Source: a virus (Duplodnaviria > Heunggongvirae > Uroviricota > Caudoviricetes). Taken from it: a stretch of 64,000 bases of DNA. Of this stretch, positions 7,978 through 60,232 are shown in pieces. The notes under the pieces were generated by a model. It saw nothing but the letters and a program-made list of their open reading frames with translations, was not told where the DNA came from and did not search any database. The stretch spans positions 3,450 to 67,449 of IMG/VR virus record IMGVR_UViG_2896028454_000001; one strand, 5' to 3'. The stretch's first letter is position 1; each line of letters starts with the position of its first letter. A program made the position numbers and the translations under genes.

Positions 7978-8502
7978 GTGGCAGGCGAAACCCAGATCAC
8001 CCTGGTCGGCAACCTGGTGGACGACCCGGAGCTTCGGTTCACCCCGGGCGGTCACGCCGTCGCGAACTTCCGTGTCGCGTCTACCCCCCGCACCTTCGAC
8101 CGGGACAAGGGCGAGTACGTGGACGGCGAGTCCATGTTCCTCACCTGCACCGTCTGGCGGCAGTACGCGGAGAACGTGGCCGAGTCCCTTCAGCGCGGTA
8201 TGCGCGTCGTCGTTCAGGGCCGCTTGAAGCAGCGGAACTACGAGAAGGACGGCCAGAAGCGGACCGTCTTCGAGATCGACGTGGACGAGGTCGGCCCGTC
8301 CCTGCGGTCCGCGACCGCGCAGGTGACGAAGAACCCGCGCGGCAACGGCAACGGGGGCGGCCAGCGCTCCCAGGGCGGCGGCTACGGCCAGCAGTCCGGC
8401 GGGTTCGGCGGTGGCCAGCAGCCCCCGACCCAGGACCCGTGGGCCGGTAACGGCGGCGGTCAGCCCAGCGGCGGTAGCTACTCGGACGAGCCCCCGTTCT
8501 AA
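7978..8502 (+). CDS. ssb: Single-stranded DNA-binding protein
   Basis: OB-fold N-terminus ([19 protein letters not shown]...), Gly/Gln-rich tail ending in the acidic DEPPF. Confidence 0.9.
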
Positions 8503-11312: not shown

Positions 11313-12107
11313 GTGCGCTTCTACCTCGGAACCCACCAACCCGACTGGCTTCACCACCTCAACCACCGGTGGTTCGAAGCCGACCAGGTCCCCCTGTTCG
11401 TGTCCCACCGCCGCCTCGCCGACCGCCGCACCCTGTTCCCCGCGAACGTCCCGTGGGCCCTCGACAGCGGCGGGTTCACCGAGCTGTCCATGTACGGCCG
11501 GTGGGTAACCACCCCCACGGACTACGCCCACCACGTCCGCCGGTACATGGACGAGATCGGCCGACTGGAGTGGGCCGCCCCGCAGGACTGGATGTGCGAG
11601 CCGGTGATGCTCGCCAAGACCGGCCTCACGGTCGCCCACCACCAGGCGCGCACCCTCGACAACCTGTTGGAGCTGCGCCACCTCGCCCCCGACCTGCCGT
11701 GGGTGCCCGTCCTCCAGGGGTGGGAGCCGGACGACTACCGGCGCCACGCCGACGCCTACCAGTCCGCTGGTGTCGACCTCACCACGGAACCCGTCGTCGG
11801 GTTGGGGTCGGTGTGCCGCCGCCAGTCCACCACCGCCGTGCACAGCCTGGTCGCTGAGCTGGCCGCTGCTGGGCTCCGGTTGCACGGGTTCGGGTTCAAA
11901 ACCCTTGGCCTCCGCAAGGTCGGGCATCTGCTCGCGTCCGCTGACAGCCTCGCTTGGTCGTTGAACGCCCGCCGTCGCCCCGCCATGGCCGAGTGCTTCG
12001 ACGCTCACGAGCACTGCGGGAACTGCCCCCGGTTCGCCACCCGGTGGCGCCGCCAGCTTCTCGACTCCCTCACCCCGCCCCCGGCCCCCTCCGCTTACGC
12101 GGCCTGA
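11313..12107 (+). CDS. tRNA-guanine transglycosylase superfamily protein, DpdA-like
   Basis: DSGGF catalytic-Asp motif (as in the TGT DSGGFQ). VPVLQGW, GLGSVCRR. C-terminal C-x5-H-x-HC-x2-C zinc-site-like motif (CFDAHEHCGNCP). Confidence 0.6.
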   Translation: MRFYLGTHQPDWLHHLNHRWFEADQVPLFVSHRRLADRRTLFPANVPWALDSGGFTELSMYGRWVTTPTDYAHHVRRYMDEIGRLEWAAPQDWMCEPVMLAKTGLTVAHHQARTLDNLLELRHLAPDLPWVPVLQGWEPDDYRRHADAYQSAGVDLTTEPVVGLGSVCRRQSTTAVHSLVAELAAAGLRLHGFGFKTLGLRKVGHLLASADSLAWSLNARRRPAMAECFDAHEHCGNCPRFATRWRRQLLDSLTPPPAPSAYAA

Positions 12108-12123
12108 CCCGAACAGGACCCCC

Positions 12124-12903
12124 ATGGACTCCCTCAGCCTCGCTGACCGCATGAAGACCTACGAGGCCGCCACCCGCCATATCCTCCCCGCCCAGACGTA
12201 CACCGTCGTCCGCGTTGACGGGCGGGCGTTCCACACGTTCCTCCGCCACGCTGACCGGCCGTTCGACGACGCGGTCATGGCCGCCATGGACGCCACCGCC
12301 GTCGCCCTCTGCAAGGACATCAGCGGGGCCCGGTTCGCCTACACCCAGTCGGACGAGGTCAGCGTCATCATGACCGACTTCGGGAACGCTGGCACACAGC
12401 CGTGGTTCGGCGGGGTCGTCCAGAAGATCGCGTCGGTTGCCTCCTCGGTGGCCACCGTGGCGTTCAACGCCGAGTACGGGCACCACTACGACGACGCGAC
12501 CGCCACGTTCGACGCGCGCGTGTTCACGCTCCCCACCGCGGCGGAGGTCGTGAACTACTTCGTGTGGCGGCAGCGCGACGCGGTCCGCAACGCCGTGTCC
12601 ATGGCTGCCCAGGCCGAGTTCTCCCACCGGCAACTCCACGGGGTGAACACCGCCCAGGCCCGCGAACTCCTCCGATCGCGCGGCATCGACTTCGACGCCT
12701 ACCCGGCCGGGGCCCGGTACGGCCGGTTGTGTGCTCGCGCCACCAGCGAACGCACCGTCACCTACACGGACAAGCGCGGGGTTGAGCACACCACCCGGGC
12801 CGTCCGCTCCCACTGGGAGACCATGCCCGCCCCGTCCTTCACCGCCGACCCGGGCGGGGATCTGGCCTCGTCCATCCCCGAGCCCGGCGACCACACCTCC
12901 TGA
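12124..12903 (+). CDS. Thg1-like protein (tRNA-His guanylyltransferase-like 3'-5' nucleotidyltransferase family)
   Basis: VVRVDGRAFH vs Thg1 VVRLDGRNFH. AYTQSDEVSVIM vs AYGQSDEYSFVF. DARVFTLPT...YFVWRQ vs DGRVVVYPS...YLSWRQ. Motifs are collinear with eukaryotic Thg1. Confidence 0.75.
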   Translation: MDSLSLADRMKTYEAATRHILPAQTYTVVRVDGRAFHTFLRHADRPFDDAVMAAMDATAVALCKDISGARFAYTQSDEVSVIMTDFGNAGTQPWFGGVVQKIASVASSVATVAFNAEYGHHYDDATATFDARVFTLPTAAEVVNYFVWRQRDAVRNAVSMAAQAEFSHRQLHGVNTAQARELLRSRGIDFDAYPAGARYGRLCARATSERTVTYTDKRGVEHTTRAVRSHWETMPAPSFTADPGGDLASSIPEPGDHTS

Positions 12904-13485: not shown

Positions 13486-13682
13486 TCCGCCACACCCATG
13501 ACCCGGACACCCGCCCCGGCGACGCCGTGGACCTGCACATCCGCGGGTCTGTCGACCAGGTCGACCACACCGGGCGGCTCCTGGTCCGCTACCCCACCCA
13601 GGGTGGTTCGCACGCGTGGGTGTGGGTGGACCCCGCCCACGCCGGGGTTGGCGTGTCCGTCAGTAAGGAGGGGCCCCGGTGA
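13482..13682 (+). CDS. Hypothetical protein (66 aa)
   Basis: GTGA overlap with the upstream stop. Confidence 0.4.
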   Translation: MIRHTHDPDTRPGDAVDLHIRGSVDQVDHTGRLLVRYPTQGGSHAWVWVDPAHAGVGVSVSKEGPR

Positions 13683-13993
13683 GCCGCCGCAACCATCACC
13701 CCGCCCCGAACGAGCGGTTCGCGTGGGCTGTCCTCGGCCTGGCCGACCCCGCGACCGCCGAACGGGTCGACGCCACCCGCGCCCGCGAGCACGCCCGCGC
13801 CCTGGCCGACCGGGGTTGGGGGACACGGAGCATCGCGAAACGGGCCGGGGTGGGGCGTCGGGCGGTGCAGTCCCTGCTGAACGGGCGCACCGCGAAGGAA
13901 CCGCCATCACACCGGGTGCTGGAGACCACGGAAGCTCTCATTCTCGCGATCGACTTGGAGGAGGCGCCGCCGTGGCAGCAGAACACGTCGTGA
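13679..13993 (+). CDS. Putative HTH DNA-binding protein
   Basis: SIAKRAGVGRRAVQSLLNG helix-turn-helix-like segment. Confidence 0.45.
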   Translation: MSRRNHHPAPNERFAWAVLGLADPATAERVDATRAREHARALADRGWGTRSIAKRAGVGRRAVQSLLNGRTAKEPPSHRVLETTEALILAIDLEEAPPWQQNTS

Positions 13994-14075: not shown

Positions 14076-14351
14076 CTACTCCTCCGGGGTTTTGCGGTTG
14101 GACTGGCCGAGCTTTCGGCCGCGGTTCTTCTTCCGCTGTTCCATCTCGGCGTCGGCCTTGGCGAGTATGGCGCGCTCCTCGGGGGTGCCGTGTTCGGCGA
14201 AGGCGTCGCGGATGAGCTGGTTGAGGTACGCAGATCGGGCGCCTTTGCCGTCTATGCCGGTGACGCGCTTGGCGATGGGGTCGAAGGCTTCCCAGACGTC
14301 GGCGTGTTCGCGGAACTGGCGGGGCTGGTTGGGGTTTTCGTCGGTGGCCAT
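14076..14351 (-). CDS. Putative small DNA-binding regulator (possibly ribbon-helix-helix); candidate binder of the TGTAGCTACA operators
   Basis: Minus-strand ORF with lysine-containing, protein-like composition. Lies immediately beside a triple-operator region and is divergent from the + genes. Confidence 0.5.
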   Translation of the reverse strand: MATDENPNQPRQFREHADVWEAFDPIAKRVTGIDGKGARSAYLNQLIRDAFAEHGTPEERAILAKADAEMEQRKKNRGRKLGQSNRKTPEE

Positions 14352-14372
14352 GGGGTCTCCCTGGGTTCGTTG

Positions 14373-14439
14373 TGTAGCTACACATCATGCCATGCCGGAA
14401 GTTGTGTAGCTACACTTCGTCTGATAAACTGTAGCTACA
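14373..14439. promoter_or_regulatory. Operator cluster 1: three copies of the palindrome TGTAGCTACA (two extended to GTGTAGCTACAC)
   Basis: Read directly at about 14373, 14405 and 14430, separated by CTTCGTCTGATAAAC, in the divergent intergenic region. Confidence 0.55.
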
Positions 14440-14486
14440 GAACATCGGGAGGGGAAGCCCGATGATCCCCACCAGGAAGGCCCACC

Positions 14487-14702
14487 ATGACCGCCACCCT
14501 CGCCGCCCCCGCCACCACCCTCCTCGTCCCCTTCGTCCTGACCGACGACCTTCCCGCTGACCTGGACAGCGACGGCAACGTGGTTTGCCGCGACTGCGGC
14601 ACCACCCTTCACACCACCCGCGCCCTGCTGGCCGTGTGGGTGGACGTGGACGCTGCCACCCACGACACCTACCGGGTGCTGGACACCCACCTGTGCGGGT
14701 GA
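14487..14702 (+). CDS. Hypothetical protein (71 aa)
   Basis: ATG after CCACCAGGAAGGCCCACC RBS context. Confidence 0.45.
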   Translation: MTATLAAPATTLLVPFVLTDDLPADLDSDGNVVCRDCGTTLHTTRALLAVWVDVDAATHDTYRVLDTHLCG

Positions 14703-14777
14703 ACCCCGCCGGGCCGCTCCCGCCCCGCTCCGGGGGCGGCCCCCACTAGACCACCCACCCACCTATCCATCCCGCTC

Positions 14778-15602
14778 ATGGAACGGAACACAGTGACCGA
14801 AACCCAAACCGCGCCGACCCCCGCGCCGAGCGCGAAGACGGCCCGCGACATTAGCGACGCTCTGCGCGAGCACTTCCCCGCTGAACTCGTCGGGAAGCTC
14901 CCCCGGATCACCTGTGGAGCTTGCTCTCAGAACAAAGGGCAGTGCGGTGATCACAGGAAGAAAAAGTGCGACGAGTGCGGCGTTTACACCACGCCCAAGC
15001 ACATTCACATCGACTTCGTCGGGCACGCCGACGTCACCAACCGCCTTCTGGACATCGACCCCGAATGGAATTGGGAGCCGTTCGCCACGGACGAGAACGG
15101 AATGCCCATCCTCGAACACGACCGGGCCGGGAACCCGGTCGGCCTGTGGATCAAGCTCACGGTCGGCGATGTCACCCGCATCGGTTACGGGTCGTGCCCG
15201 TCCGACCAGTTCGAGGCTGTAAAAGTCCTCATTGGTGACGCACTGCGCAACGCCGCTATGCGGTTCGGTGTGGCCCTGAACCTGTGGGCCAAGGGGGAGC
15301 GGCAGGACCCCACCGCAGAGAACGCCATCGCATCCGGCGGTAAGGCTGCCCGCCGTTTGCGCAAGGGCGAAGAGCCCGAACGGGTCACGGACCGGGACTG
15401 GATGTTGGCCATGTTCCAGCAGATCCAGGACGCTCAGAACGACGCGATGCTCATGGTTCTCGAAGGCGAATGCAAGACCAAGTACGACTCCCACGCGCTC
15501 ACGGTGCATGACGCGAAGAGCCTGCGCGCGGAGATCGACAAGCGCCGCCGGATGCTCGCGAAGGCCACCCAGGGTGAGGGGGTGGCTGCTGGTGCGGAGT
15601 AG
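14778..15602 (+). CDS. Putative Rad52-family single-strand annealing protein with an N-terminal zinc ribbon
   Basis: CGACS...CGDHRKKKCDECG zinc ribbon. The segment AAMRFGVALNLWAKG resembles the Rad52/Sak GxGRYLY region. Weak. Confidence 0.4.
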   Translation: MERNTVTETQTAPTPAPSAKTARDISDALREHFPAELVGKLPRITCGACSQNKGQCGDHRKKKCDECGVYTTPKHIHIDFVGHADVTNRLLDIDPEWNWEPFATDENGMPILEHDRAGNPVGLWIKLTVGDVTRIGYGSCPSDQFEAVKVLIGDALRNAAMRFGVALNLWAKGERQDPTAENAIASGGKAARRLRKGEEPERVTDRDWMLAMFQQIQDAQNDAMLMVLEGECKTKYDSHALTVHDAKSLRAEIDKRRRMLAKATQGEGVAAGAE

Positions 15603-16119
15603 TCCCGAGGAGATCCGCGCGGCCGTCCTGGCGTTGCTCAAAGGCGACGTGGAGGGCGAGTACGACAAGGCGCGCGCGGTCGTCGGGGCTGAGCTGATGG
15701 AGGGCGATCGTCACGGGATCGCCCTCCCGGGCCCGGACGGCGAACCGGTGAAGGTCGGCACCGTGCACCGGCCCGAGGACACCACGACGGTCCTGGTGGA
15801 CGAGCGCAAGGCGTTGGCGTGGCTCCAGGAGCACATGCCGCACGAGGTGGCCCCAGCGCCCCGGCCGGGGGCGTTGGAGCGCCTGCAAAAGGAGATCGAG
15901 CGGTACGGCGGCGTGCTGGTCCGCGGGGAGATTGTGCCGGTGGATTGGGCGGAGGTGCAGGTTAAACCTGCGGCGGCGCGGGTGTATCGGCCGACGAAGG
16001 GTGCGCAGAGGGAGGCGGCGAAGGCGGCGGTGTTCACGGCGTTTGAGCGTGGGGACTTGTCGTTGTCGGCGTTGCTGGCTCCGCAGTTGGAGGCGGGGGA
16101 GTCTCCCCCCGAAGTCTGA
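15592..16119 (+). CDS. Hypothetical protein
   Basis: GTG start overlapping the upstream stop. Confidence 0.45.
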   Translation: MRSSPEEIRAAVLALLKGDVEGEYDKARAVVGAELMEGDRHGIALPGPDGEPVKVGTVHRPEDTTTVLVDERKALAWLQEHMPHEVAPAPRPGALERLQKEIERYGGVLVRGEIVPVDWAEVQVKPAAARVYRPTKGAQREAAKAAVFTAFERGDLSLSALLAPQLEAGESPPEV

Positions 16120-16124
16120 TGTTG

Positions 16125-16159
16125 TGTAGCTACAAAACATCTGATAAAGTGTAGCTACA
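16125..16159. promoter_or_regulatory. Operator cluster 2: two TGTAGCTACA palindromes flanking CATCTGATAAAG
   Basis: Same palindrome and the same TCTGATAAA core spacer as cluster 1, upstream of gene 16255. Confidence 0.5.
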
Positions 16160-16254
16160 CAACGAGGAGCACTCTCGAAGTGCGGCGGGGGGCACGCGAC
16201 CCAACCACGACTCGCTCCCCCCGCCACCACCCCCCCGGCCAGGAAGGCACCCCC

Positions 16255-16467
16255 ATGACCACCAACGCCCAGAACACCCCCACGATCTACGACGTCAAGC
16301 CCGGCGACGTCGTCGCCATCATCGGCCACATGGGCGCCGAAACCGTCATCACCGCAACCAAGGCGTTCGAGCACGACAGCGCCATGCACCTCACCGACGA
16401 AACCGGGTGGAAGCACACCCTCTACGAGAACACCCGGTTCCGGTTCGTGCACCGCGCCCACCGCTAA
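16255..16467 (+). CDS. Hypothetical protein (70 aa)
   Basis: ATG after CCAGGAAGGCACCCCC. Confidence 0.45.
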   Translation: MTTNAQNTPTIYDVKPGDVVAIIGHMGAETVITATKAFEHDSAMHLTDETGWKHTLYENTRFRFVHRAHR

Positions 16468-21583: not shown

Positions 21584-21640
21584 CTGGTAGGATGGGGGTA
21601 CCCCCGGAAGGGGCGAAACCCCTGAATCCGAGGAGTCCCC

Positions 21641-22261
21641 GTGCCCCCTTTCCCTCGTGCTGTCTGTCCTGGTTGTGGCGAGGACATCGCGGTCAACCGG
21701 GGCGGGCGTCTCCGCGTTCACGGCCGTCTGCCCTACGACGGGTGCCCCGGGTCCAGCAGGTACGCCCGGCCTCTGCTGTTCCTGGACGTGGACGGGCCCT
21801 TGAACCCGCACTACATGGGCAAGAACAAGTCCCGCCGGTTGGGTTACCAGCGGGACTGGATCAACGGGTTCGACGTCCGTCTGAACCCCTCCCACGGCCC
21901 CGCCCTCCTCGGCCTCCCTGTGGATCTGGTGTGGGGCACCACGTGGGAGCACGACGCGAACAAGCTGATCGGCCCCGTCATCGGGCTGCCCGAACTGCCG
22001 GTGTGCGAGTGGTCGAAGACCGAACCGAAAGGCATCGACCGGCGGGTGTATTACAAAACCCCCGACCTGGTCGATTACGCCGAAGACCGGCACCGGCCGT
22101 GGATCTGGGTGGACGACGAGATCGGCGACGCCGACCGCGAATACGCCGCCGGGGCCGCGACCGTCCCCACCCTCCTCCACCGGGTGGACCCCCGCGAAGG
22201 GCTCACCACCGACGACTTCACCGCGATCACCGCGTGGGTCCACAACCTCAACAACCCCTGA
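21641..22261 (+). CDS. HAD-superfamily phosphatase (polynucleotide 3'-phosphatase-like)
   Basis: Motif I FLDVDGPL. Motif IV WIWVDDEIGD. N-terminal CPGC...C zinc ribbon. Confidence 0.55.
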   Translation: MPPFPRAVCPGCGEDIAVNRGGRLRVHGRLPYDGCPGSSRYARPLLFLDVDGPLNPHYMGKNKSRRLGYQRDWINGFDVRLNPSHGPALLGLPVDLVWGTTWEHDANKLIGPVIGLPELPVCEWSKTEPKGIDRRVYYKTPDLVDYAEDRHRPWIWVDDEIGDADREYAAGAATVPTLLHRVDPREGLTTDDFTAITAWVHNLNNP

Positions 22262-22272
22262 AACGGAACCCC

Positions 22273-23061
22273 ATGACACTCCTCGAAACCCTCAACCGCA
22301 GGCTGCTGAACAGCGCCACCCAGTACCCGAAGATGCCCACCTACCACAAGCTCGAACGCGGCCTGCTCACCGATGACCGCAACACCGTGTTCCCCGCCCA
22401 CCAGCCCGTCATCATCACGGAGAAGGTCAACGGTGCGTCCGCCCGCGTGGTGGTGGACTCCTCCGGGGACCTGTTCATCGGCTCCCGCCATGAACTCCTG
22501 TACGCCCTCGGCGACCGCATCCCGAACCCGGCCGAGAACATCGTCCACACCCTCCGCGACATCGCCCGGGACCTGCCCCGCCCCGGCGACGGGCTGGCCG
22601 TGTACTTCCTGGAGGTGTACGGCAGCGGCATCGGGTCCGCGTGGAAGCAGTACACCGGCCGCAAGGGCGAGTACGGGGCCCGCCTGTTCGACGCCGCGAT
22701 GATCCCCGCCGACGCCCTGGAGGGCACGGCCGAGCAAATCGCCGCATGGCGCGAGCAGGGCGGCCAGAAGTTCGCGACGGAGAAGGAACTGGCCGGAATC
22801 ACCCTGGTGTCGGACATCCCCCTCACCCCGCGCATCGCGACGATCCCTGGGGCCGGAGTGCCCGCGACCATCGCGGAGATGCACCCGTACCTGTGCGTGG
22901 TCGCCGGGGAGACCCGGGTCGCCCTGGACGAGGACGGTTTCGGCAACGCGGAAGGGATCGTGCTCCGCACCCCGGACCGGTCCCACATCGTCAAGGTCCG
23001 GCACAAGGACTACGAGCACACCGCGAAGGCCCGCGCCCGCGCCCGTGCGAAGGCCGCCTGA
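22273..23061 (+). CDS. ATP-dependent RNA ligase-like nucleotidyltransferase (Rnl2-like)
   Basis: Motif I ITEKVNGAS (KxNG lysine nucleotidyltransferase motif). Motif IV-like EGIVLR. Motif V-like IVKVRHKD. Confidence 0.55.
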   Translation: MTLLETLNRRLLNSATQYPKMPTYHKLERGLLTDDRNTVFPAHQPVIITEKVNGASARVVVDSSGDLFIGSRHELLYALGDRIPNPAENIVHTLRDIARDLPRPGDGLAVYFLEVYGSGIGSAWKQYTGRKGEYGARLFDAAMIPADALEGTAEQIAAWREQGGQKFATEKELAGITLVSDIPLTPRIATIPGAGVPATIAEMHPYLCVVAGETRVALDEDGFGNAEGIVLRTPDRSHIVKVRHKDYEHTAKARARARAKAA

Positions 23062-34261: not shown

Positions 34262-34971
34262 CCGTCACCCTGTACCCGTGCGGGCGCGGCCACCGCTGCG
34301 TCCAAGCCTCGATCGACCCCGACACCCGCGAACGCCACCCGGCCCGCACCCCGCACACGTTCTGCGACACCGACGCCGAGCACATCGCCCAGACCATCCG
34401 GGACCTACCCGTGGTGTACCGCGAACTCCGCGAGGTGTACGGCGACCAACCCCAGGGCGCCGCCGATGACGTGCGCGTGCACACCTCGAAGGTCGACCCG
34501 TCCATCCCTGTCCGTGAGGACCTGGACGCCCTGTTGACCGAGATCGAGACGACCGTGTTCGCCTACGAGGACCGTGTCCGCCAGGTCCTCGGCATGGGCC
34601 CGGCCCCCCGGGTGTCGTGGGCGCACCGGGCGGCCCGGGTTGAGCAGGCGTGCACCCTGTTGGCCGGACGGGTGGTGGTCCTCACCGACCTGCCCATGGA
34701 GTGGATGGCCATCGACGGGTCGCACGACGAACGCGGTGGTTTGGATGCCGGGCTGGACCTGCTCGATGTGCACCGGCGGGCGGACCGGGCCGGGGGGAAG
34801 CAACCGGCCCGGTATGTGGTGCCGGTGGTGTGCCCGGCCTGCCATCTCCCTGCGGGGGTGACCCGTGAGGCGGGGAAGGACGGGGCCACCTGTATGTGCG
34901 GGTACGTGATCGGTGAGGACGAGTACCGGAAGCTCACCGCTGAGCTGGCCGACGTGGCGAAGGCGGTGTGA
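34258..34971 (+). CDS. Hypothetical protein (237 aa)
   Basis: GTGA overlap. Cys cluster CPACH...CMCG. Confidence 0.5.
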   Translation: MTVTLYPCGRGHRCVQASIDPDTRERHPARTPHTFCDTDAEHIAQTIRDLPVVYRELREVYGDQPQGAADDVRVHTSKVDPSIPVREDLDALLTEIETTVFAYEDRVRQVLGMGPAPRVSWAHRAARVEQACTLLAGRVVVLTDLPMEWMAIDGSHDERGGLDAGLDLLDVHRRADRAGGKQPARYVVPVVCPACHLPAGVTREAGKDGATCMCGYVIGEDEYRKLTAELADVAKAV

Positions 34972-35447
34972 CAGTGGCCTGGTGCGGGGCGCGGGCGGTG
35001 TTCTGGCCGGAGGCGGAGGCGTGCGACGCCGTGTGTGGTTTGACGGTGCACGAGAGTACGGTCCACAGAGATCATGCGTTGGGCGAATGGGATGAGGCTG
35101 ATCTGGTGACCGTTCATGGGGAAGAGAGTGCGATGGATGATCTGGTGGTGTGGTTGCGCAGCGTCTTGGACGCTGACGGGAAGGCCGCAGGGGTGTTCCG
35201 CAGGGTGTCCTTGTGGACTGAAGCTGAAGCTGATGTTGACACTGATGAGGCCCGTGAGCGCTACCTGAAGATGGTGACTCCTGAACAGGCCCTTGCGGAT
35301 ATCGCAGCGAAGCGGGCCGTGCTCGACCTGTGGGACCTTGCCCGGCTCTCTCCTCACAGCGAGTCTTACGGGGCCCTCACTGAGGCTGTGCGTGCCATCG
35401 CGGGCGGGTACCGGCACCGGCCCGGATGGAATCCCGCGTGGGGGTGA
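34968..35447 (+). CDS. Hypothetical protein (159 aa)
   Basis: GTGA overlap. Confidence 0.5.
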   Translation: MTVAWCGARAVFWPEAEACDAVCGLTVHESTVHRDHALGEWDEADLVTVHGEESAMDDLVVWLRSVLDADGKAAGVFRRVSLWTEAEADVDTDEARERYLKMVTPEQALADIAAKRAVLDLWDLARLSPHSESYGALTEAVRAIAGGYRHRPGWNPAWG

Positions 35448-35809
35448 CCGGGCCCATCCCGGGGGAGTGGCTGGACGCGGCGTACTACGACCGCACCCGG
35501 GAACAACAAGCCGCGGTCGCCGACGTCCAGGAACAGCTTGGAGTGTGGCCGCCGGACGGGTTGCCGGGCCCGGCCACCTGGGCGGCGTGCCAGGAGCATC
35601 CGGCCGGCGTCCGGTTGGCGGCCAGGATCACGGGCATCCTCACCGGGGCGTGCGCGCACGACGGGGCGGTGCCGGTGGAGACTGTGGGGACGGTGCTGGA
35701 CCCGCCGGAAACCGTGGCGTGGCTGTGCCCTGGGTGTGATGCCCAGCTCCCCGCAGCGTGGGCGCGAGAGGCCCTCAAGAACGCTAGGGATGGAGAAGCC
35801 CCTACCTGA
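35444..35809 (+). CDS. Protein with a putative peptidoglycan-binding (PG_binding_1-like) motif
   Basis: VADVQEQLGVWPPDGLPGPATWAA resembles the PG-binding repeat. Confidence 0.4.
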   Translation: MTGPIPGEWLDAAYYDRTREQQAAVADVQEQLGVWPPDGLPGPATWAACQEHPAGVRLAARITGILTGACAHDGAVPVETVGTVLDPPETVAWLCPGCDAQLPAAWAREALKNARDGEAPT

Positions 35810-35825
35810 ACACGGTAGGGGCTTC
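35795..35825 (+). terminator. Terminator hairpin GAAGCCCCTACC-N7-GGTAGGGGCTTC
   Basis: Perfect 12-bp stem at the end of 35444..35809, before a gene-poor gap. Confidence 0.45.
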
Positions 35826-36004
35826 AGCGCGGGCCTGTAGACCACAGGCAGCCCGCTACGAGGTGCGGGGCACGGGGGTTCGCGGTGGCGAAGGTCTGAC
35901 GGGACACAACCAATCGCGAACCCTCTCTCTCGTTGGTTCATTGTACACCTGGTTGCACACCTGGCAGGAGCGAGGGGCCGGTGGTGGCACCCTCGCCTCG
36001 TAGC

Positions 36005-36238
36005 ATGGAATCCATGAGTGCTGACGTGTTCCGGGTGTCCCGGGTGGTGGGCCCTGAGGGGTCGGCTGTGGCGAAGTTGTACGGGGAGGCGGCGGGTGCG
36101 GTGTTCACCCAGGCTGAGCCGTTGGAGGTGCCTGCGGAGTGGTTGACGCGGTCGGGTGTGCCGTTGTCGGAGGTGGCTGATCGGCGGTGGGCGTTGTCGG
36201 CGGAGGGTTGGGTGCCGGTGGAGCGGGTGTCGTTTTGA
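36005..36238 (+). CDS. Hypothetical protein (77 aa)
   Basis: ATG MESMSADVF. Confidence 0.4.
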   Translation: MESMSADVFRVSRVVGPEGSAVAKLYGEAAGAVFTQAEPLEVPAEWLTRSGVPLSEVADRRWALSAEGWVPVERVSF

Positions 36239-36246
36239 GGTTGGGG

Positions 36247-36276
36247 TTGCACCACGGTTAGAGTTCGTGCTTTAAT
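36247..36276 (+). promoter_or_regulatory. Cassette promoter copy 1 (TTGCAC-N18-TTTAAT with GGTTAGAGTTCGTGC core)
   Basis: Member of the 9-copy family TTGCAM-N3-GGTTAGAGTTCGTGY-AATAAT. Confidence 0.5.
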
Positions 36277-36281
36277 TGTGT

Positions 36282-36305
36282 GTGTCGGGAAGGGAAGCCC
36301 GACAC
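36282..36305 (+). promoter_or_regulatory. 5' stem-loop, AAGGGAAG loop (GTGTCGGG/CCCGACAC stem)
   Basis: Covarying stem, invariant loop. Confidence 0.5.
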
Positions 36306-36326
36306 CAACCACCAGAAAGGCACACC

Positions 36327-36707
36327 ACCGTGAGCGAGACCATCCGCAACGAGATGCACGACAAGCTCGAAACCACCCTGACCATCATCGCCGCCGCGTT
36401 CGCCCGCGTGAACATCCGCATCGGCGACCCCACCCGCATCGACCTGGACCACGACATCCACCACTGGCAGCAGGCCGTGTGGGAGTCCACGAAGGACCTG
36501 GCCAACCTGAACACCGGCCACGCCTGGACGTCCACGATCGGCCTGGAGGACGCCGCCAGCCGGTGGGTGCACGCGGCCACCGCCTACACCGCCTACCGGC
36601 ACCTGTCGGCCGAGTTCAACGAGGGCCTGTTCTGGGAGCACATGGCGCCGTGCGAGTCCGCGCTGAGCCTCCTGGTCGACGGGGCGCGTTGGACGGTTCG
36701 GGGTTGA
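36327..36707 (+). CDS. Hypothetical protein (cassette gene 1)
   Basis: GTG after CCACCAGAAAGGCACACCACC. Confidence 0.5.
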   Translation, partial: TVSETIRNEMHDKLETTLTIIAAAFARVNIRIGDPTRIDLDHDIHHWQQAVWESTKDLANLNTGHAWTSTIGLEDAASRWVHAATAYTAYRHLSAEFNEGLFWEHMAPCESALSLLVDGARWTVRG

Positions 36708-36743
36708 TCCTGCGGGGTCCGGGTGGTTGCTCGGGCCCCAGCT

Positions 36744-36772
36744 TGCCCCCGGGTTAGAGTTCGTGTAATATT
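36744..36772 (+). promoter_or_regulatory. Cassette promoter copy 2
   Basis: TTGCCC-ccg-GGTTAGAGTTCGTGT-AATATT. Confidence 0.45.
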
Positions 36773-36776
36773 GGGG

Positions 36777-36799
36777 GTGTTGGGAGGGAAGCCCAACAC
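36777..36799 (+). promoter_or_regulatory. 5' stem-loop (GTGTTGGG-AGGGAAG-CCCAACAC)
   Basis: Same family. Confidence 0.5.
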
Positions 36800-37967: not shown

Positions 37968-38043
37968 CCTGGGGGTTGGTTGTTGGAGTGTGTGGGTTGG
38001 GGCCGGCGCGGTGGGCGTCGGCCCTTTTTGTTGGGTGGTCGAC

Positions 38044-38073
38044 TTGCACTCTGGTTAGACTTCGTGCAATAAT
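38044..38073 (+). promoter_or_regulatory. Cassette promoter copy 3 (TTGCAC ... AATAAT)
   Basis: GACTTGCACtctGGTTAGACTTCGTGCAATAAT. Confidence 0.5.
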
Positions 38074-38084
38074 GGTCATGTCAG

Positions 38085-38106
38085 GGCGGGGAAGGGAAGC
38101 CCCGCC
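38085..38106 (+). promoter_or_regulatory. 5' stem-loop (GGCGGGG-AAGGGAAG-CCCCGCC)
   Basis: Same family. Confidence 0.5.
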
Positions 38107-38450: not shown

Positions 38451-38480
38451 GGGGGTGCGGGAAGGGAAGCCCGCACCCCC
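38451..38480 (+). promoter_or_regulatory. Stem-loop (GGGGGTGCGGG-AAGGGAAG-CCCGCACCCCC) without the promoter element
   Basis: Intra-operon copy. Confidence 0.5.
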
Positions 38481-38924: not shown

Positions 38925-38932
38925 CTTTCCGC

Positions 38933-38962
38933 TTGCACTCTGGTTAGAGTTCGTGCAATAAT
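38933..38962 (+). promoter_or_regulatory. Cassette promoter copy 4
   Basis: TTGCACtctGGTTAGAGTTCGTGCAATAAT. Confidence 0.5.
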
Positions 38963-38975
38963 AGAGACATCGCAA

Positions 38976-38993
38976 GGGGGAAGGGAAGCCCCC
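38976..38993 (+). promoter_or_regulatory. 5' stem-loop (GGGGG-AAGGGAAG-CCCCC)
   Basis: Same family. Confidence 0.5.
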
Positions 38994-39643: not shown

Positions 39644-39669
39644 GGGGGCGGGAAGGGAAGCCCGCCCCC
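39644..39669 (+). promoter_or_regulatory. Stem-loop (GGGGGCGGG-AAGGGAAG-CCCGCCCCC)
   Basis: Same family. Confidence 0.5.
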
Positions 39670-40192: not shown

Positions 40193-40220
40193 GGGGGCGC
40201 GGAAGGGAAACCGCGCCCCC
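40193..40220 (+). promoter_or_regulatory. Stem-loop (GGGGGCGCGG-AAGGGAAA-CCGCGCCCCC)
   Basis: Same family, one loop substitution. Confidence 0.45.
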
Positions 40221-40614: not shown

Positions 40615-40640
40615 GGGGCGCGGAAGGGAAGCCGCGCCCC
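40615..40640 (+). promoter_or_regulatory. Stem-loop (GGGGCGCGG-AAGGGAAG-CCGCGCCCC)
   Basis: Same family. Confidence 0.5.
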
Positions 40641-41387: not shown

Positions 41388-41439
41388 ACGGGTGCGCCGG
41401 GCCTGGTGGGAACAGAGTCCGTTTTAGTCCTGGTTTGGG

Positions 41440-41469
41440 CTTGCCGACCGGTTAGAGTTCGTGTAATAT
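41440..41469 (+). promoter_or_regulatory. Cassette promoter copy 5
   Basis: TTGCCGaccGGTTAGAGTTCGTGTAATATT. Confidence 0.45.
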
Positions 41470-41472
41470 TAT

Positions 41473-41506
41473 GGGTGTTGGGAGGGAAGGGAAGCCCGAC
41501 CAACAC
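41473..41506 (+). promoter_or_regulatory. Stem-loop with duplicated loop motif (AGGGAAGGGAAG)
   Basis: GGTGTTGG...CCAACACC stem. Confidence 0.45.
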
Positions 41507-41745: not shown

Positions 41746-41753
41746 GCTTCGAC

Positions 41754-41783
41754 TTGCAAAGCGGTTAGAGTTCGTGCAATAAT
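41754..41783 (+). promoter_or_regulatory. Cassette promoter copy 6
   Basis: TTGCAAagcGGTTAGAGTTCGTGCAATAAT. Confidence 0.5.
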
Positions 41784-41792
41784 AAGGACATC

Positions 41793-41812
41793 GGCGGGAA
41801 GGGAAGCCCGCC
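41793..41812 (+). promoter_or_regulatory. Stem-loop (GGCGGG-AAGGGAAG-CCCGCC)
   Basis: Same family. Confidence 0.5.
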
Positions 41813-42984: not shown

Positions 42985-43085
42985 GGGCGGCCCCGGCGCA
43001 CCCCGGTTAGGGTTCGGTTTCTTTCTCTGGTCGGGGTGTGTGGGGTCGTCTTCGAGGGTGCGCCATTTTTGCTTGTTGATCCGAC

Positions 43086-43115
43086 TTGCAAACTGGTTAG
43101 ATATCGTGCAATAAT
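43086..43115 (+). promoter_or_regulatory. Cassette promoter copy 7
   Basis: TTGCAAactGGTTAGATATCGTGCAATAAT. Confidence 0.5.
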
Positions 43116-43150
43116 AGGGGTGTTGGTCGGCGGAATCCCGCCCCAACAAC

Positions 43151-43170
43151 CCGGGGAAGGGAAGCCCCGG
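43151..43170 (+). promoter_or_regulatory. Stem-loop (CCGGGG-AAGGGAAG-CCCCGG)
   Basis: Same family. Preceded by a second long imperfect hairpin at 43117-43152. Confidence 0.5.
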
Positions 43171-45256: not shown

Positions 45257-45263
45257 TCCCGAT

Positions 45264-45293
45264 TTGCCAACTGGTTAGAGTTCGTGTAATAAT
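45264..45293 (+). promoter_or_regulatory. Cassette promoter copy 8
   Basis: TTGCCAactGGTTAGAGTTCGTGTAATAAT. Confidence 0.5.
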
Positions 45294-45295
45294 AA

Positions 45296-45333
45296 GGGTG
45301 TTGGGGCGGAAGGGAAGCCGCCCCAACATCACC
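45296..45333 (+). promoter_or_regulatory. Stem-loop (..TTGGGGCGG-AAGGGAAG-CCGCCCCAA..)
   Basis: Same family, extended stem. Confidence 0.5.
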
Positions 45334-45666: not shown

Positions 45667-45689
45667 GGGGGCGGGAAGTTTTCCGCCCC
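45667..45689 (+). terminator. Terminator-like hairpin GGGGGCGGGAA-GTT-TTCCGCCCC
   Basis: Hairpin after the stop, before a promoter copy. Confidence 0.4.
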
Positions 45690-45693
45690 TGGC

Positions 45694-45723
45694 TTGCAAG
45701 CCGGTTAGAATTCGTGTAATAAT
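45694..45723 (+). promoter_or_regulatory. Cassette promoter copy 9
   Basis: TTGCAAgccGGTTAGAATTCGTGTAATAAT. Confidence 0.5.
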
Positions 45724-45732
45724 AGAGGCATC

Positions 45733-45756
45733 GGGGGCGGAAGGGAAGCCGCCCCC
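45733..45756 (+). promoter_or_regulatory. Stem-loop (GGGGGCGG-AAGGGAAG-CCGCCCCC)
   Basis: Same family. Confidence 0.5.
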
Positions 45757-48930: not shown

Positions 48931-49021
48931 GGGAGTGCGCCGGAGATGGAGCGCCGGAGCTGGCTGTAACCCAGTGACCCCTTTCGCGGGTTAGGAGGTT
49001 CGAGTCCTCCCACTCCCACCA
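48931..49021 (+). tRNA. tRNA-Tyr (anticodon GTA), class II with long variable arm, encoded CCA
   Basis: Hand-folded. Acceptor GGGAGTG/CACTCCC. D-arm CCGG/CCGG with GG. Anticodon stem GCTGG/CCAGT. Loop CT-GTA-AC. T-arm GGAGG-TTCGAGT-CCTCC. About 91 nt. Coordinates +/- 1. Confidence 0.6.
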
Positions 49022-49042
49022 CCCCGCCCACACGCGGGGCCT

Positions 49043-49118
49043 ATGCGGGTAGCTCAACTGGTAGAGCAGCCGCCTCCAAAGCGGCCGGTTGCGGGTTCGA
49101 ACCCTGCCCCGTATGCCA
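49043..49118 (+). tRNA. tRNA-Trp (anticodon CCA), encoded CCA
   Basis: Hand-folded. Acceptor ATGCGGG/CCCGTAT (one G-U pair). D-arm GCTC-AACTGGTA-GAGC. Anticodon stem GCCGC/GCGGC. Loop CT-CCA-AA. T-arm GCGGG-TTCGAAC-CCTGC. 76 nt. Confidence 0.75.
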
Positions 49119-56735: not shown

Positions 56736-57227
56736 GTGGGCAAGCGAGGCCCCCGCGAGAAACCCACCTCCCTCAAGCTCCTCGACGGCACCCGCCGCGA
56801 CCGGATCAACACCGACGAACCCCTCCCCGGGCAGGGCACCATCGCCCCGCCCGGGTGGCTGGTCGCTCTCCACAACCAGGCCGACCCCGCGTCCCCCTAC
56901 GAAACCGCCCTGGACGTGTGGAATCGGCTCGCCCCCGACCTCGAAGCGAAGATGGTCCTCACCCCATGGGATGTCGACACGTTCGCGGTGTGGTGCGACG
57001 CCGTTGTCCGCCACCGCGAAGCCGTTGACGAGATCACCCAGTACGGGGTCATGGTCGTCGGCCAGAAGGGCGAGCGGGTCAAAAACCCGGCCGTCCAGAT
57101 CGCCCGCGACTACGCGGAGACGATGACCCGCATCGGTGCCCGCTTCGGCCTCACCCCCTCGGACCGTGCCGGTCTGAAGATCGACCGGGAGGAGGTCAGG
57201 GGTGGAGCCGAACGATTCCTCTCCTGA
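56736..57227 (+). CDS. Terminase small subunit (P27-family-like)
   Basis: KGERVKNPAVQIARDYAETMTRIGARFGLTPSDRAGL is typical of the P27 small terminase family. Immediately upstream of the large terminase, with overlap. Confidence 0.7.
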   Translation: MGKRGPREKPTSLKLLDGTRRDRINTDEPLPGQGTIAPPGWLVALHNQADPASPYETALDVWNRLAPDLEAKMVLTPWDVDTFAVWCDAVVRHREAVDEITQYGVMVVGQKGERVKNPAVQIARDYAETMTRIGARFGLTPSDRAGLKIDREEVRGGAERFLS

Positions 57228-58914
57228 CCTGCCCGCGTGCTCCTGGACCCATGACGGCCTGACCTGCCCCGAGCAGGGCAACCACTTCTGTACCCCGCGC
57301 GCGAACCACGCCCAGGGGTTCATCGAAGAGGTCCTGGTGCACACCAAGGGCACCTACGCGCGCAAGCCGTTCATCCTCACCGACTGGCAGCGCGACGACA
57401 TCGTCCGGCCCTTGTTCGGGCAGGTTCGCTGGTCCGACGAGTACCAGGACTACGTCCGCCAGTACTCCACGGCGTGGATCGAACTGGCCCGCAAGAACGG
57501 CAAGTCCGAGATCCAGGCCGCGATCATGCTGTACCTGCTCGTGGCGGACGGTGAGGAAGAAGCCGAACTGTACGGGTGCGCCCGCGACCGCGACCAAGCC
57601 AGCCTGGTGTTCAACGTCGCCAAGCGCATGGTGCAGCTCTCACCGGTGCTGTCGCGCCGGTTGCAGGTCAAGGACGCCAACAAGCGCATCGTGGACCCGA
57701 AAACCGCGTCGTTCTACCAGGTGATCGCCGCCGACGCGGCCGGAGCCCTGGGCTACAACCCGCACGGGGTTGCGGCCGACGAGATCCTGGCGTGGCGCAA
57801 GCGGGACCTGTGGGACGCCATGGAGACCGGTATGGGTTCGGGGGCCCGCCGACAGCCGTTGATGATCGCGGCGACCACCGCAGGCAACGACCCGACCAGC
57901 TTCGCGGCGAACATGCACAACGAGATGCAGCGCATCTTCGACATGCCGGACCGGTCGGCGCACACGTTCGTGTACCTGCGCAACACCCCGGAGGACGCGG
58001 ACCCGTGGGATGAGGCGACGTGGAAGATCGCGAACCCCGCCCTGGGGGACTTCCTGTCGATCGAGAAGTTCCGGCAGGCCGCATCGGACGCACGGAACGC
58101 CCCGGAGAAGGAGAACGCGTTCCGCCAGTTCCGTCTCAACCAGTGGGTGCGCCAGTCCACCCGGTGGATGCCCATGCACCTGTACGGGGAGAATCCCGGC
58201 GAGGTGTGGTCCCACCCGGACCAGGCGCGCGAGGAGCTGGCGGGCCGGGAAGCCTACGGCGGCCTCGACCTGTCCGCGAAGTTCGACCTGACCGCGTGGT
58301 GTGTGCTCCTTCCCCCGGAGGAGAAGGGCGGCCCGGTCGATGTGCTGTGGCGGTTCTGGTTGCCCGAGGACGCCTTGCCGAAGCTCGACGAGGAGAACGA
58401 CGGCGCGTTCACCCGGTGGGCTGAACAGGGCTGGTTGACCATCACCGAAGGCAACATCATTGACTACGACCGGGTGTACGAGGACATCGGCGAGGACGGC
58501 GAACACTTCGCGTTCCGTGCCGCGCACGCCGATGAGTGGTCGATGTGGCCGGTCATCAACAAGGTCGCGGACCTTACCGGCCTGGACCCGGAAGAGGGCG
58601 AGATCGTCGCGTACAAGAACACCTACGACCGGATGACGCCGGGGTTGAACGAGGTCATGGCGTTGGTGAAGACCCGCCGGTTCGCGCACCACGGCAACCC
58701 GGTCGCGTCGTTCTGCTTCGACAGTGTCGAGGTGCGGCGCGCCCCGTACAACCCGGACCTGATCCGCCCGGACAAACCGGAGCGGGACAAGTCCGGGAAG
58801 CGCATCGACGGTGTTCCGGTGGCGGCGATGGCCGCGAACGCGATGGTCCTCAACGCCGACACCGGCGAGGGTTACCGGTCCGCTTACGAAGACCGCGGCC
58901 TCACCGTCGCCTAA
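57202..58914 (+). CDS. Terminase large subunit
   Basis: 570 aa. ATPase region then nuclease region with conserved acidic residues. Standard position before portal. Confidence 0.9.
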   Translation: MEPNDSSPDLPACSWTHDGLTCPEQGNHFCTPRANHAQGFIEEVLVHTKGTYARKPFILTDWQRDDIVRPLFGQVRWSDEYQDYVRQYSTAWIELARKNGKSEIQAAIMLYLLVADGEEEAELYGCARDRDQASLVFNVAKRMVQLSPVLSRRLQVKDANKRIVDPKTASFYQVIAADAAGALGYNPHGVAADEILAWRKRDLWDAMETGMGSGARRQPLMIAATTAGNDPTSFAANMHNEMQRIFDMPDRSAHTFVYLRNTPEDADPWDEATWKIANPALGDFLSIEKFRQAASDARNAPEKENAFRQFRLNQWVRQSTRWMPMHLYGENPGEVWSHPDQAREELAGREAYGGLDLSAKFDLTAWCVLLPPEEKGGPVDVLWRFWLPEDALPKLDEENDGAFTRWAEQGWLTITEGNIIDYDRVYEDIGEDGEHFAFRAAHADEWSMWPVINKVADLTGLDPEEGEIVAYKNTYDRMTPGLNEVMALVKTRRFAHHGNPVASFCFDSVEVRRAPYNPDLIRPDKPERDKSGKRIDGVPVAAMAANAMVLNADTGEGYRSAYEDRGLTVA

Positions 58915-59528
58915 TCCGCCGGTACGAGGATGGATCGGAGCATCGCACCGGCCGGGGTCAGAACGAACCGGTCGCCTTCCTGCGTGTACGCGAAGCCCTT
59001 CAACGCGGTGTCGGGCACCTGCTCGGCCGTGTCGTCCTGGAACGCGTCCAGCTCGGCACGGTGGGGGAGTACCGGCATCTGGTTGATGGGCATGTTCACC
59101 GGCCCGTCCTGCCACGCCCACACGCTCACCATCGGACGTAGCTCTTGGAGAGCGCCGGCCGCGTGGAGCACGTGTGCGTCCAAGCTGCCACCGTCGTTGG
59201 GCACGTTGATGGTGATCGGCCAACGCGGCGTGTGATCGTGCAGCAACCGCAGGAGCGCGCCCATTTGCCGCCATGGCCCGTTGGTGAACTCGGCCAGATC
59301 GAGCAACACCAGCGACCTCAGGTCGATGGTCGGGCCGAGGTGGGTGTCAGGAGTGATCTCGTGTAGGACCTGCTCGGGTTCCTCGCCTTTGTGTGCCAGG
59401 AACGTCTCCATGGCGGTGTCCTTGTCGGCTGCCCCGTTCACCCCAACCACAATTAGGGGTTCTGCGGGGGCCACGGCCACCATTGGGACGCCGGACTTTT
59501 CGTTCACCAGCATCACATGGACTGACAA
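58911..59528 (-). CDS. Hypothetical protein (205 aa), minus-strand insert
   Basis: Protein-like composition. Convergent with the terminase gene. Confidence 0.5.
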   Translation of the reverse strand: MSVHVMLVNEKSGVPMVAVAPAEPLIVVGVNGAADKDTAMETFLAHKGEEPEQVLHEITPDTHLGPTIDLRSLVLLDLAEFTNGPWRQMGALLRLLHDHTPRWPITINVPNDGGSLDAHVLHAAGALQELRPMVSVWAWQDGPVNMPINQMPVLPHRAELDAFQDDTAEQVPDTALKGFAYTQEGDRFVLTPAGAMLRSILVPAD

Positions 59529-59647: not shown

Positions 59648-60232
59648 TCACTGTCGCGTGACGAACCGGCCTTTGCCTCGCACGACCGTGACGAGCCCGG
59701 CCCCTTCCAACGCCGCGAAGGCGTGCCGGGCCGTCATCCGCGACACCCCGTACTCACGCTGAACATCCGCCTCGGACGGCAGCGCGTCATCCGGGGCCAG
59801 CTCCCCGCTGGTGATCCGCCTCCGTAGATCACGGGCGATCACCCGGAACGGTGCGCTCGCCTTCACCGGCAACTCCCCGCGCTCCTGGGCGGTGCACACC
59901 ACACGGCCCGAACCCGGGCGAGCCCGAACCCGGCGGTCCTTCTCCAACTCCGCCAGCGCCCGCCGAACGGTCGTGCGCGACACCCCGAACTCGGCCATCA
60001 ACGCCGACTCGGACGGGACCGGGGCCCCTGGGGTGAGCTGCCCCGACTCGATCCGGGCGGTCAGCTCCTTAGCGATCGCCCTGTAGGTGCCCCACTCCGC
60101 CCGCTGCCCCGACACGCTCATGCGCCCAACGTACCGGGCCAACCCAACCAGAGAAGGGGGGTGGCCCGCGTTGTTTGCCTGGCTCCGCCTGCTCCTCCGC
60201 CGTGAGGTCGTCGTGAACCTCCACGACGGCAC
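59648..60232 (-). CDS. Tandem GntR-type winged-HTH transcriptional regulator (no effector domain)
   Basis: Two copies of the GntR HTH signature: ALMAEFGVSRTTVRRALAELEKDRRV and ADVQREYGVSRMTARHAFAALEGAGLV. Confidence 0.6.
   Translation of the reverse strand: MPSWRFTTTSRRRSRRSQANNAGHPPSLVGLARYVGRMSVSGQRAEWGTYRAIAKELTARIESGQLTPGAPVPSESALMAEFGVSRTTVRRALAELEKDRRVRARPGSGRVVCTAQERGELPVKASAPFRVIARDLRRRITSGELAPDDALPSEADVQREYGVSRMTARHAFAALEGAGLVTVVRGKGRFVTRQ

Follow-up and report, generated by a model that had tools for sequence, protein, structure and literature searches.

Arc and Mnt, encoded in the immI region of Salmonella phage P22, are small ribbon-helix-helix (RHH) repressors whose operators overlap back-to-back divergent promoters, with negative autoregulation. 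MetJ reads repeated 8-bp palindromic metboxes (AGACGTCT), and the known RHH centromere binders, such as ParG and omega, also repress transcription. Here we describe a locus that recalls each of these systems in part. It lies in a 64,000-nucleotide stretch (positions 3,450 to 67,449) of the IMG/VR virus record IMGVR_UViG_2896028454_000001, a member of the Caudoviricetes; this whole stretch is termed the window, and coordinates are counted from its first letter. A sequence-only reading had drawn attention to five copies of a perfect palindrome, TGTAGCTACA, beside a minus-strand gene for a 91-aa protein (14076..14351, −; G+C content at third codon positions (GC3) 0.87). We propose, with a probability of about 0.72, that the five palindromes are operators for dimers of this protein, which would be an RHH-type, autoregulated repressor of early promoters. 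The palindromes are read as operators because none would be expected by chance, the promoter geometry around them is kept in 10 of 10 lineages, gene and sites are associated, sites and protein change in concert, and the predicted fold fits.

The palindrome is present exactly five times in the 64 kb, at 14373-14382, 14405-14414, 14430-14439, 16125-16134 and 16150-16159 (O1 to O5). The expected number of copies is 0, and none of 100 dinucleotide-preserving shuffles held any, so the motif does not occur at random frequency. Searching the window for further copies yielded no sixth exact match; allowing up to two mismatches added only the sites at 8473 and 18285, which is chance level. The arrangement is as originally described, with three copies (cluster 1) in the 135-bp divergent region between open reading frames (ORFs) 14076-14351 (−) and 14487-14702 (+), and two (cluster 2) ahead of ORF 16255, 1.7 kb downstream. 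The reported extension of three copies to a 12-mer, GTGTAGCTACAC, is likewise confirmed (14372-14383, 14404-14415 and 16149-16160), and the one at 14430 forms part of a 12-bp palindrome, CTGTAGCTACAG. The two clusters have a 46-bp module in common (14398-14443 and 16118-16163, 85% identity), laid out as GTTGTGTAGCTACA-N5-TCTGATAAA-N-TGTAGCTACA-N-AAC. Judged by the comparisons below, what the lineages have in common as operator core is the 8-mer GTAGCTAC. A single further exact GTAGCTAC is found at 8474-8481 (GGTAGCTACT), near the 3′ end of gene 7978-8502; approximately 0.5 such 8-mers are expected by chance per 64 kb (estimated from base composition) and this site may be meaningless.

These counts bear on the notion that the palindromes are accidental, or a structural repeat without regulatory role, such as mobile-element remnants or a restriction or methylation target. 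It is true that AGCT forms part of the core and that a C5 cytosine methyltransferase gene is present in the phage, but the window shows no depletion of AGCT (observed/expected 1.6), the 10-mer as RNA forms no stable hairpin, and zero expected copies are hard to square with five whose positions are conserved in distant lineages. The comparative data appear to have effectively refuted this possibility. A methylation-sensitive switch at AGCT, tied to the methyltransferase, was considered and dropped, as AGCT is neither depleted nor otherwise special.

The sequence-only reading also singled out a core between the palindromes, TCTGATAAA. It is indeed common to both clusters (exact at 14420 and 16140, and nowhere else in the window), but the pattern around it identifies it as the spacer and −10 of a putative sigma-70-type promoter rather than as an operator. 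Both clusters read rightward as TTGTGT-17-TAAA[C/G]T, with one palindrome overlapping the first hexamer and the other starting at the last T of the second. The first of these candidate promoters, P1 (14402..14430, +), has a −35 TTGTGT (14402-14407), a 17-bp spacer and a −10 TAAACT (14425-14430). P2 (16122..16150, +) is a second copy of it, with −35 TTGTGT (16122-16127), a 17-bp spacer and −10 TAAAGT (16145-16150). O2 overlaps the −35 of P1, while O3 abuts the −10 and covers the expected P1 start site; in cluster 2, O4 lies over the −35 of P2 and O5 over its expected start site.

To compare this geometry more widely we used ten independent lineages, defined as homologues of the 91-aa protein at 25-40% protein identity and drawn from Nocardiopsis, Actinocorallia, Actinosynnema, Actinomadura, Nonomuraea, Pseudonocardiaceae and Jiangellaceae genomes, along with viral and metagenome contigs. 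In all ten, O3 is flanked 5′ by TAnnnT, with T1, A2 and T6 invariant and positions 3-5 varying. The 5′ flank of O2 is TTG in 10/10, TTG[T/C]GT-N17-TAnnnT is kept in 10/10, and the O3-O2 spacing is 25-26 bp throughout. The flanks of O1, on the other hand, are variable and the O2-O1 spacing ranges over 19-36 bp. With TTG and TAnnnT fixed while the flanks and distance of O1 vary, the promoter is separable from the operator core GTAGCTAC. At the equivalent place, an IMG/VR contig (L001) carries the canonical TTGACA-g-TGTAGCTACA-ccggcg-TAGTAT-agg-TGTAGCTACA, with a 17-bp spacer, and it is this textbook promoter, together with the ten-lineage pattern, that assigns the inter-palindrome core to spacer plus −10. 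The two closest Nocardiopsis elements (L005 and L006) retain all five sites while spacer bases drift. A satellite promoter of this kind, bearing an operator pair, is likewise present in an Actinocorallia prophage (L007) and a Pseudonocardiaceae metagenome-assembled genome (L014), at 1.2-1.4 kb from the main cluster and with different intervening genes.

A leftward promoter for the RHH gene itself, P_rhh (14384..14412, −), would be weak: −10 CATGAT (complement of 14384-14389), a 17-bp spacer and −35 TAGCTA within O2 (14407-14412). In eight lineages an xAnnnT hexamer sits 2-7 bp upstream of O1 (CATGAT in the window, then TACGAT, CAGGCT, GAGAAT, CAAACT, TACAAT, TAGAAT and GAAACT). O2 thus looks like an operator common to two back-to-back promoters, overlapping the −35 of each, and O1, 22 bp from the start codon, would lie over the start of the regulator's transcript.

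The spacing of the sites invites a different reading, in which the palindromes are promoter-recognition elements for a phage sigma factor or RNA polymerase, or in which the RHH protein activates transcription. Paired sites approximately 25 bp apart resemble a −35/−10 distance, and the host-type −35, TTGTGT, is poor. Against this, separate TTG and TAnnnT elements at 17-bp spacing are kept independently of the palindrome and are absent from O1; perfect dyad symmetry is what dimeric regulators, and not sigma factors, typically recognise; the L001 sites fall within the spacer of a canonical promoter (TTGACA/TAGTAT) and downstream of it; and sites over +1 are classic repressor positions. We regard this reading as very unlikely.

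The association between the gene and the sites was assessed in both directions. In the forward direction, all 14 loci whose protein has a PRQ[FIV]R-type or related strand have three GTAGCTAC-type sites no more than approximately 135 bp upstream, as does L019, and the proximal site is 21-61 bp from the family gene in every lineage. In the reverse direction, metagenomes were searched for the bare DNA pattern GTAGCTAC-N17-GTAGCTAC. A family protein is encoded 3-81 bp from the site at 13 of 30 high-GC site-pair loci. Full promoter geometry was seen at 12 high-GC loci, 11 of which have the family gene; the twelfth contig ends at the gene start. None of 90 low-GC site-pair loci has either a family gene or the full geometry. 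The pairing of GTAGCTAC with this repressor candidate is conserved across at least six actinobacterial genera despite the 25-40% protein identity, and the RHH gene is the only constant neighbour of the sites across lineages whose gene content otherwise differs.

Sites also change along with the protein. A member with the strand KAKPIRV (L010) has three GTATCTAC sites, and one with TRNIRV (L022) has GTAAC[C/T]AC three times at the usual spacing, its proximal site remaining GTAGCTAC. A third, with QTRFRV (L021), has no such site and a different inverted repeat instead. A clean link between strand residues and operator bases was sought and did not emerge, owing to an exception (L009) that is taken up below.

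The adjacent 91-aa protein, which the sequence-only reading had named as the candidate binder, stands up well in that role: it has RHH topology (see below), three sites precede its gene in every lineage examined, and a DNA-first search recovers it. The sites could still be operators for another protein, either a host factor, the helix-turn-helix (HTH)-like product of 13679-13993 or the GntR-type product of 59648-60142, with the RHH gene merely one of the regulated genes. Further regulators are encoded in the window, and L001 has four sites and no family gene within the 11.8 kb covered. This is nonetheless improbable, as no other gene is a constant neighbour of the sites, the metagenome search from DNA alone led to the RHH gene, and the sites are altered or gone in members with changed β-strands. 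A host factor, moreover, fails to explain an identical core in at least six genera together with lineage-specific variants.

Two variations on the gene-site arrangement stand apart. In one lineage (L069, 1785-2745; L141, 4072-5035) the divergent region holds four sites as two pairs, with a satellite pair approximately 900 bp away, and the family protein has diverged further (E 2e-8 in L141). In Amycolatopsis and a metagenome contig (L008, 5860-5990; L022, 139-290), the family gene sits beside an FtsK/SpoIIIE-type gene or a tyrosine integrase and these elements carry four to five degenerate or altered repeats; they may be integrative conjugative elements rather than phages.

The 91-aa protein is identical to WP_160051199.1 from Nocardiopsis sp. 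FR26, and homologues at 84-90% identity are encoded on contigs of approximately 82-104 kb in two other Nocardiopsis assemblies. With two family members as queries, tblastn found no match in 50,697 deposited phages. The family is small: profile searches gave 28 clusters in a 5.8-billion-protein set and 187 representatives among 1.84 billion. An alignment of 26 members shows, in order, a TKPRQ[FI]RV strand, helix A (W.AY..VC.RLG), a G-TTR turn, helix B (AEDLNAHIR..I..HG), helix C and a basic RKGGRPPK tail; the conserved motif that comes after W.AY..VC.RLG reads TTRAEDLNAHIR. The family shows the arrangement that defines the RHH fold, an N-terminal strand and then two helices with a short G-x-[ST]-type turn between them, and minimal relatives of 46-56 aa consist of this strand-helix-helix core alone. 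AlphaFold2, run with the multiple sequence alignment, modelled residues 1-16 as extended, helices at 17-31 and 38-54 separated by a loop, and a third helix, with predicted local distance difference test (pLDDT) scores >90 for residues 20-70; this monomer model looks as an RHH monomer would without its strand partner. At the sequence level the best PDB profile match is the RHH antitoxin EndoAI (E 0.043, a weak match). A distant family member (P0123) passes the Pfam gathering threshold for ParG, and hhalign against ParG brings the whole core into register (E 0.019). Another (P0108) has weak matches to RelB/DinJ and to an ‘Arc-like repressor’ PHROG. The 91-aa protein has no HTH_3 or Peptidase_S24 match. 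By topology and weak transitive homology, then, the protein is most likely of the RHH type. Binding of an RHH dimer to GTAGCTAC is suggested by the dyad symmetry of the site and the gene-site association, and one dimer per 8-bp palindrome, as for MetJ on the metbox, would be the likely arrangement.

Two features vary within the family. In most members the C-terminus is a conserved ERRARKGGRPPK tail similar to an AT-hook (an RGRP-type minor-groove motif). In the Nocardiopsis proteins KKNRGRKLG takes the place of the tail motif (residues 70-91) and the loop between helices A and B has a 5-residue insertion.

The relationship to ParG raises the question of whether this is a partition system, with the protein a ParG-like centromere binder, the palindromes the centromere of an extrachromosomal prophage and any effect on transcription secondary. 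ParG is the nearest recognisable family by transitive homology, the closest homologue is named in UniRef as a ‘Centromere-binding protein ParB C-terminal domain-containing protein’, related elements appear as separate contigs of approximately 104 kb in Nocardiopsis isolate assemblies, and repression by the known RHH centromere binders is compatible with the idea. However, the 91-aa protein and two close homologues do not match the ParG model PF09274, even at E 10, and no ParA/ParF-type ATPase (ParA/CbiA/AAA_31) lies beside the gene in nine annotated loci or among 39 Pfam-scanned window proteins. The gene is monocistronic and converges on the upstream genes. There are just 3+2 sites, each on the −35 or +1 of promoters of non-partition genes, and family members reside in prophages integrated in 9-10 Mb chromosomes (L007 and L020) and beside integrases (L019 and L022). 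We consider a partition system very unlikely. A dual role, in which the protein is both the transcriptional master switch of a new group of temperate Nocardiopsis phages of approximately 104 kb and a ParG-like centromere binder, the clusters pairing or looping for segregation of an extrachromosomal prophage with an unlinked or unrecognised ATPase, seems only slightly less so.

Under the repressor model, the RHH protein would bind GTAGCTAC cores as dimers and, as it accumulated, occupy the operators. Occupied O2/O3 and O4/O5 would exclude RNA polymerase from P1 and P2, silencing the operon that includes the annealing-protein gene and the long operon behind P2. Occupation of O2 and O1 would at the same time damp P_rhh, giving negative autoregulation. 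Binding itself, repression rather than activation, the start sites and the atomic-level fold are what we infer from these comparisons.

Several points weigh against this interpretation. Searches with the 91-aa protein gave no match in Pfam, even when relaxed to E 10, or in NCBIfam, PHROGs or PADLOC, and hhalign comparisons with Arc and Mnt were not significant. A strict consensus promoter scan flagged nothing in the region, which is explained by the poor −35: TTGTGT agrees with TTGACA at only three of six positions. On this point we consider the comparative data decisive, as the conserved geometry appears to overrule the negative scan. The leftward promoter P_rhh is weakly defined and is the least certain element of the model. 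A second regulator candidate nearby, 13679-13993 (weak HTH-type PHROG matches), is a possible binder. Finally, L009, with the changed strand TTPIRV, retains GTAGCTAC, so that co-variation of strand and operator is imperfect.

As to the role in the phage life cycle, the family's elements are temperate or carried: they turn up in the genomes of isolates, with integrases close to the gene in L019 and L022 and chromosomal copies in L007 and L020. In the window, where nearly all genes are on the plus strand, 14076-14351 is one of only five minus-strand genes, and in a phage coded on one strand such an island on the other typically consists of prophage-expressed genes. These observations therefore favour a prophage-expressed repressor of the early operons, to which we would give about even odds. 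A Cro-like or temporal shut-off regulator is a more doubtful, though still tenable, option; in L007 and L018 the family gene heads an operon running on to terminase. On a weaker reading, lysogeny of the temperate Nocardiopsis phages of approximately 104 kb may be held by an RHH repressor and not by a CI-type protein.

Comparison with the known systems shows where the resemblance ends. With P22 Arc/Mnt the locus shares a small phage RHH protein, operators over back-to-back divergent promoters and the logic of autoregulation. It differs in having no significant sequence relation to them, and in the third helix and basic tail of the phage protein. Arc occupies one 21-bp operator as a tetramer, whereas this locus has five separate palindromes of 8-10 bp. 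Unlike immI, no antirepressor match (Pfam, PHROGs) was found in the genes downstream of P1 and P2, the sole assignment there being the single-strand-annealing protein. The likeness to MetJ lies in the repeated boxes and the probable use of one RHH dimer per 8-bp palindrome, but metboxes are directly adjacent and require S-adenosylmethionine, whereas the phage sites are 25-36 bp apart with no cofactor indicated. ParG (TP228), to which the family has its closest detectable sequence relation, omega (pSM19035) and ParB (pCXC100) likewise have a flexible segment N-terminal to the strand, use several repeated sites and are autoregulated; they differ in having a partner ATPase and in using arrays of 4- or 7-bp repeats, as opposed to palindromic 8-10-mers on non-partition promoters.

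As with lambda CI/Cro, three operators separate a regulator gene from a divergent early promoter, a second cluster lies some distance away (1.7 kb, against 2.4 kb in lambda), and the proposed logic is one of repression plus autoregulation. In contrast to lambda, there is no helix-turn-helix or cleavage domain, P1 and P2 point in the same direction, the remote cluster comprises two sites, and nothing like a Cro protein that would compete with the RHH protein for its operators is evident. The earlier proposal of a multi-operator repressor system was essentially right, being supported by the sites, their promoter geometry, their conservation and their strict association with the gene family, but two co-directional copies of one promoter plus a back-to-back regulator promoter are not a divergent PL/PR pair. 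The lambda analogy holds only for the tripartite operator plus a second cluster 1.7 kb away. Similarly, the suggestion that the system controls a recombination module is borne out in that the P1 operon holds the Rad52-like gene; the P2 operon, however, lies downstream of it, and the regulon would be wider. Overall, the proposed switch is of the conventional repressor-operator kind and holds no surprise in principle, though its conservation is good, its organisation is clean and it lends itself to direct test; it cannot be assigned with confidence to any named family, and lacks defining features of both the ParF/ParG partition system and the CI/Cro switch. A literature search returned nothing relevant on the motif, the family, RHH repressors of actinophages or Nocardiopsis phages.

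The analysis provides a testable function and a precise DNA target for a family that is unnamed in any domain library and has 187 representatives in actinobacterial phages and prophages. It also maps two early promoters and a likely autoregulated promoter in a large uncharacterised Nocardiopsis phage. The family, with its conserved core and natural specificity variants (GTATCTAC and GTAACCAC), offers a set of natural variants in which the reading of DNA by ribbon-helix-helix strands can be studied. For the same reason it could provide compact repressor/operator pairs, orthogonal to one another, for gene control in Streptomyces and further high-GC actinomycetes.

The genes around the switch are those of a phage. 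The window is 69% G+C and encodes DnaB, beta-clamp, the C5 methyltransferase, an RNA ligase, a Thg1-like enzyme and a single-strand-annealing protein, along with the large terminase, portal and prohead protease; on the strength of this gene content it derives from a large actinobacterial phage. Megablast gave no nucleotide match for the window among deposited phages and plasmids, and a search of the window proteins found no ParA or integrase. The P1 operon begins with 14487..14702 (+; 71 aa, GC3 0.93), which has no Pfam, PHROG or PADLOC match. Its second gene, 14778..15602 (+), lies between the two palindrome clusters and encodes the Rad52-like single-strand-annealing protein (PHROG 3290, E 8e-46); tblastn matches of the product are single-strand-annealing proteins of mycobacteriophages, and its homologues in L005 and L006 carry Pfam Rad52_Rad22. 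The third, 15574..16119 (+), encodes 181-203 aa depending on the choice of start and has no family match in Pfam, PHROG or PADLOC. P2 precedes 16255..16467 (+; 70 aa, GC3 0.96), without Pfam or PHROG match, and behind it is a long run of plus-strand genes: many small ones, then an exonuclease, the RNA ligase and the methyltransferase. The leader of approximately 95 nt from P2 to the start codon at 16255 (16160-16254) is more conserved among the three Nocardiopsis elements than is the coding end of the upstream gene, and might hold an RNA element or regulatory site.

Directly after P1, in the 5′ untranslated region (UTR), is a hairpin, CATCGGG-aggggaag-CCCGATG (14443..14464, +), one of 13 copies across the phage. 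All 13 are on the plus strand and none is on the minus strand; the loop, G-AAGGGAAG-C, is constant and the stems, of 3-11 bp, are fully compensatory. Most copies lie 36-52 nt ahead of a start codon. The other twelve, all on the plus strand and with approximate stem ends, are at 36283-36304, 38085-38106, 38451-38480, 38976-38993, 39644-39669, 40193-40220, 40615-40640, 41484-41497, 41793-41812, 43151-43170, 45299-45328 and 45733-45756. No Rfam family matches the hairpin, which is possibly a boxB/nut-like protein-binding site or a 5′-UTR stabiliser.

Most of the hairpins follow a second, unrelated promoter-like family at 36.2-45.7 kb. This element, CTTGC[A/C]-N5-GGTTAGAGTTCGTG-[C/T]AATAAT, is present in nine copies (36242-36275, 36738-36783, 38039-38084, 38928-38973, 41436-41481, 41749-41794, 43081-43126, 45259-45304 and 45689-45734), each upstream of a gene and usually with the hairpin next. 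The hairpin behind P1 thus occupies the same relative position as those behind the second family, an independent indication that P1 is transcribed rightward. In the second family the two hexamers are separated by an invariant 14-mer, which points to another regulator, distinct from the first, or to a sigma factor of its own.

Three other parts of the window deserve mention. The gene at 59648-60142 (−) encodes a product with two winged-helix domains of the GntR type (PF00392, E 2e-39, in two stretches); it sits between the large terminase (57202-58914) and the portal (60383-62380) and adjoins the minus-strand ORF 58911-59528, an odd site for a regulator. The segments 11313-12903, 21592-23061 and 48931-49118 take in a DpdA-like gene (by homology to L005/L006), the Thg1-like tRNA-His guanylyltransferase, the RNA ligase, tRNA-Tyr and tRNA-Trp, which together look like a tRNA repair or DNA/RNA modification toolkit of the phage. 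Lastly, 34971-36330 is a 1.36-kb stretch without high-GC3 ORFs and with reversed GC skew, just ahead of the first copy of the second promoter-like element. Coordinate arithmetic, assuming collinearity, would put the end of the 104-kb contig of CT-R113 close by, and the stretch may be a genome end or attachment region.

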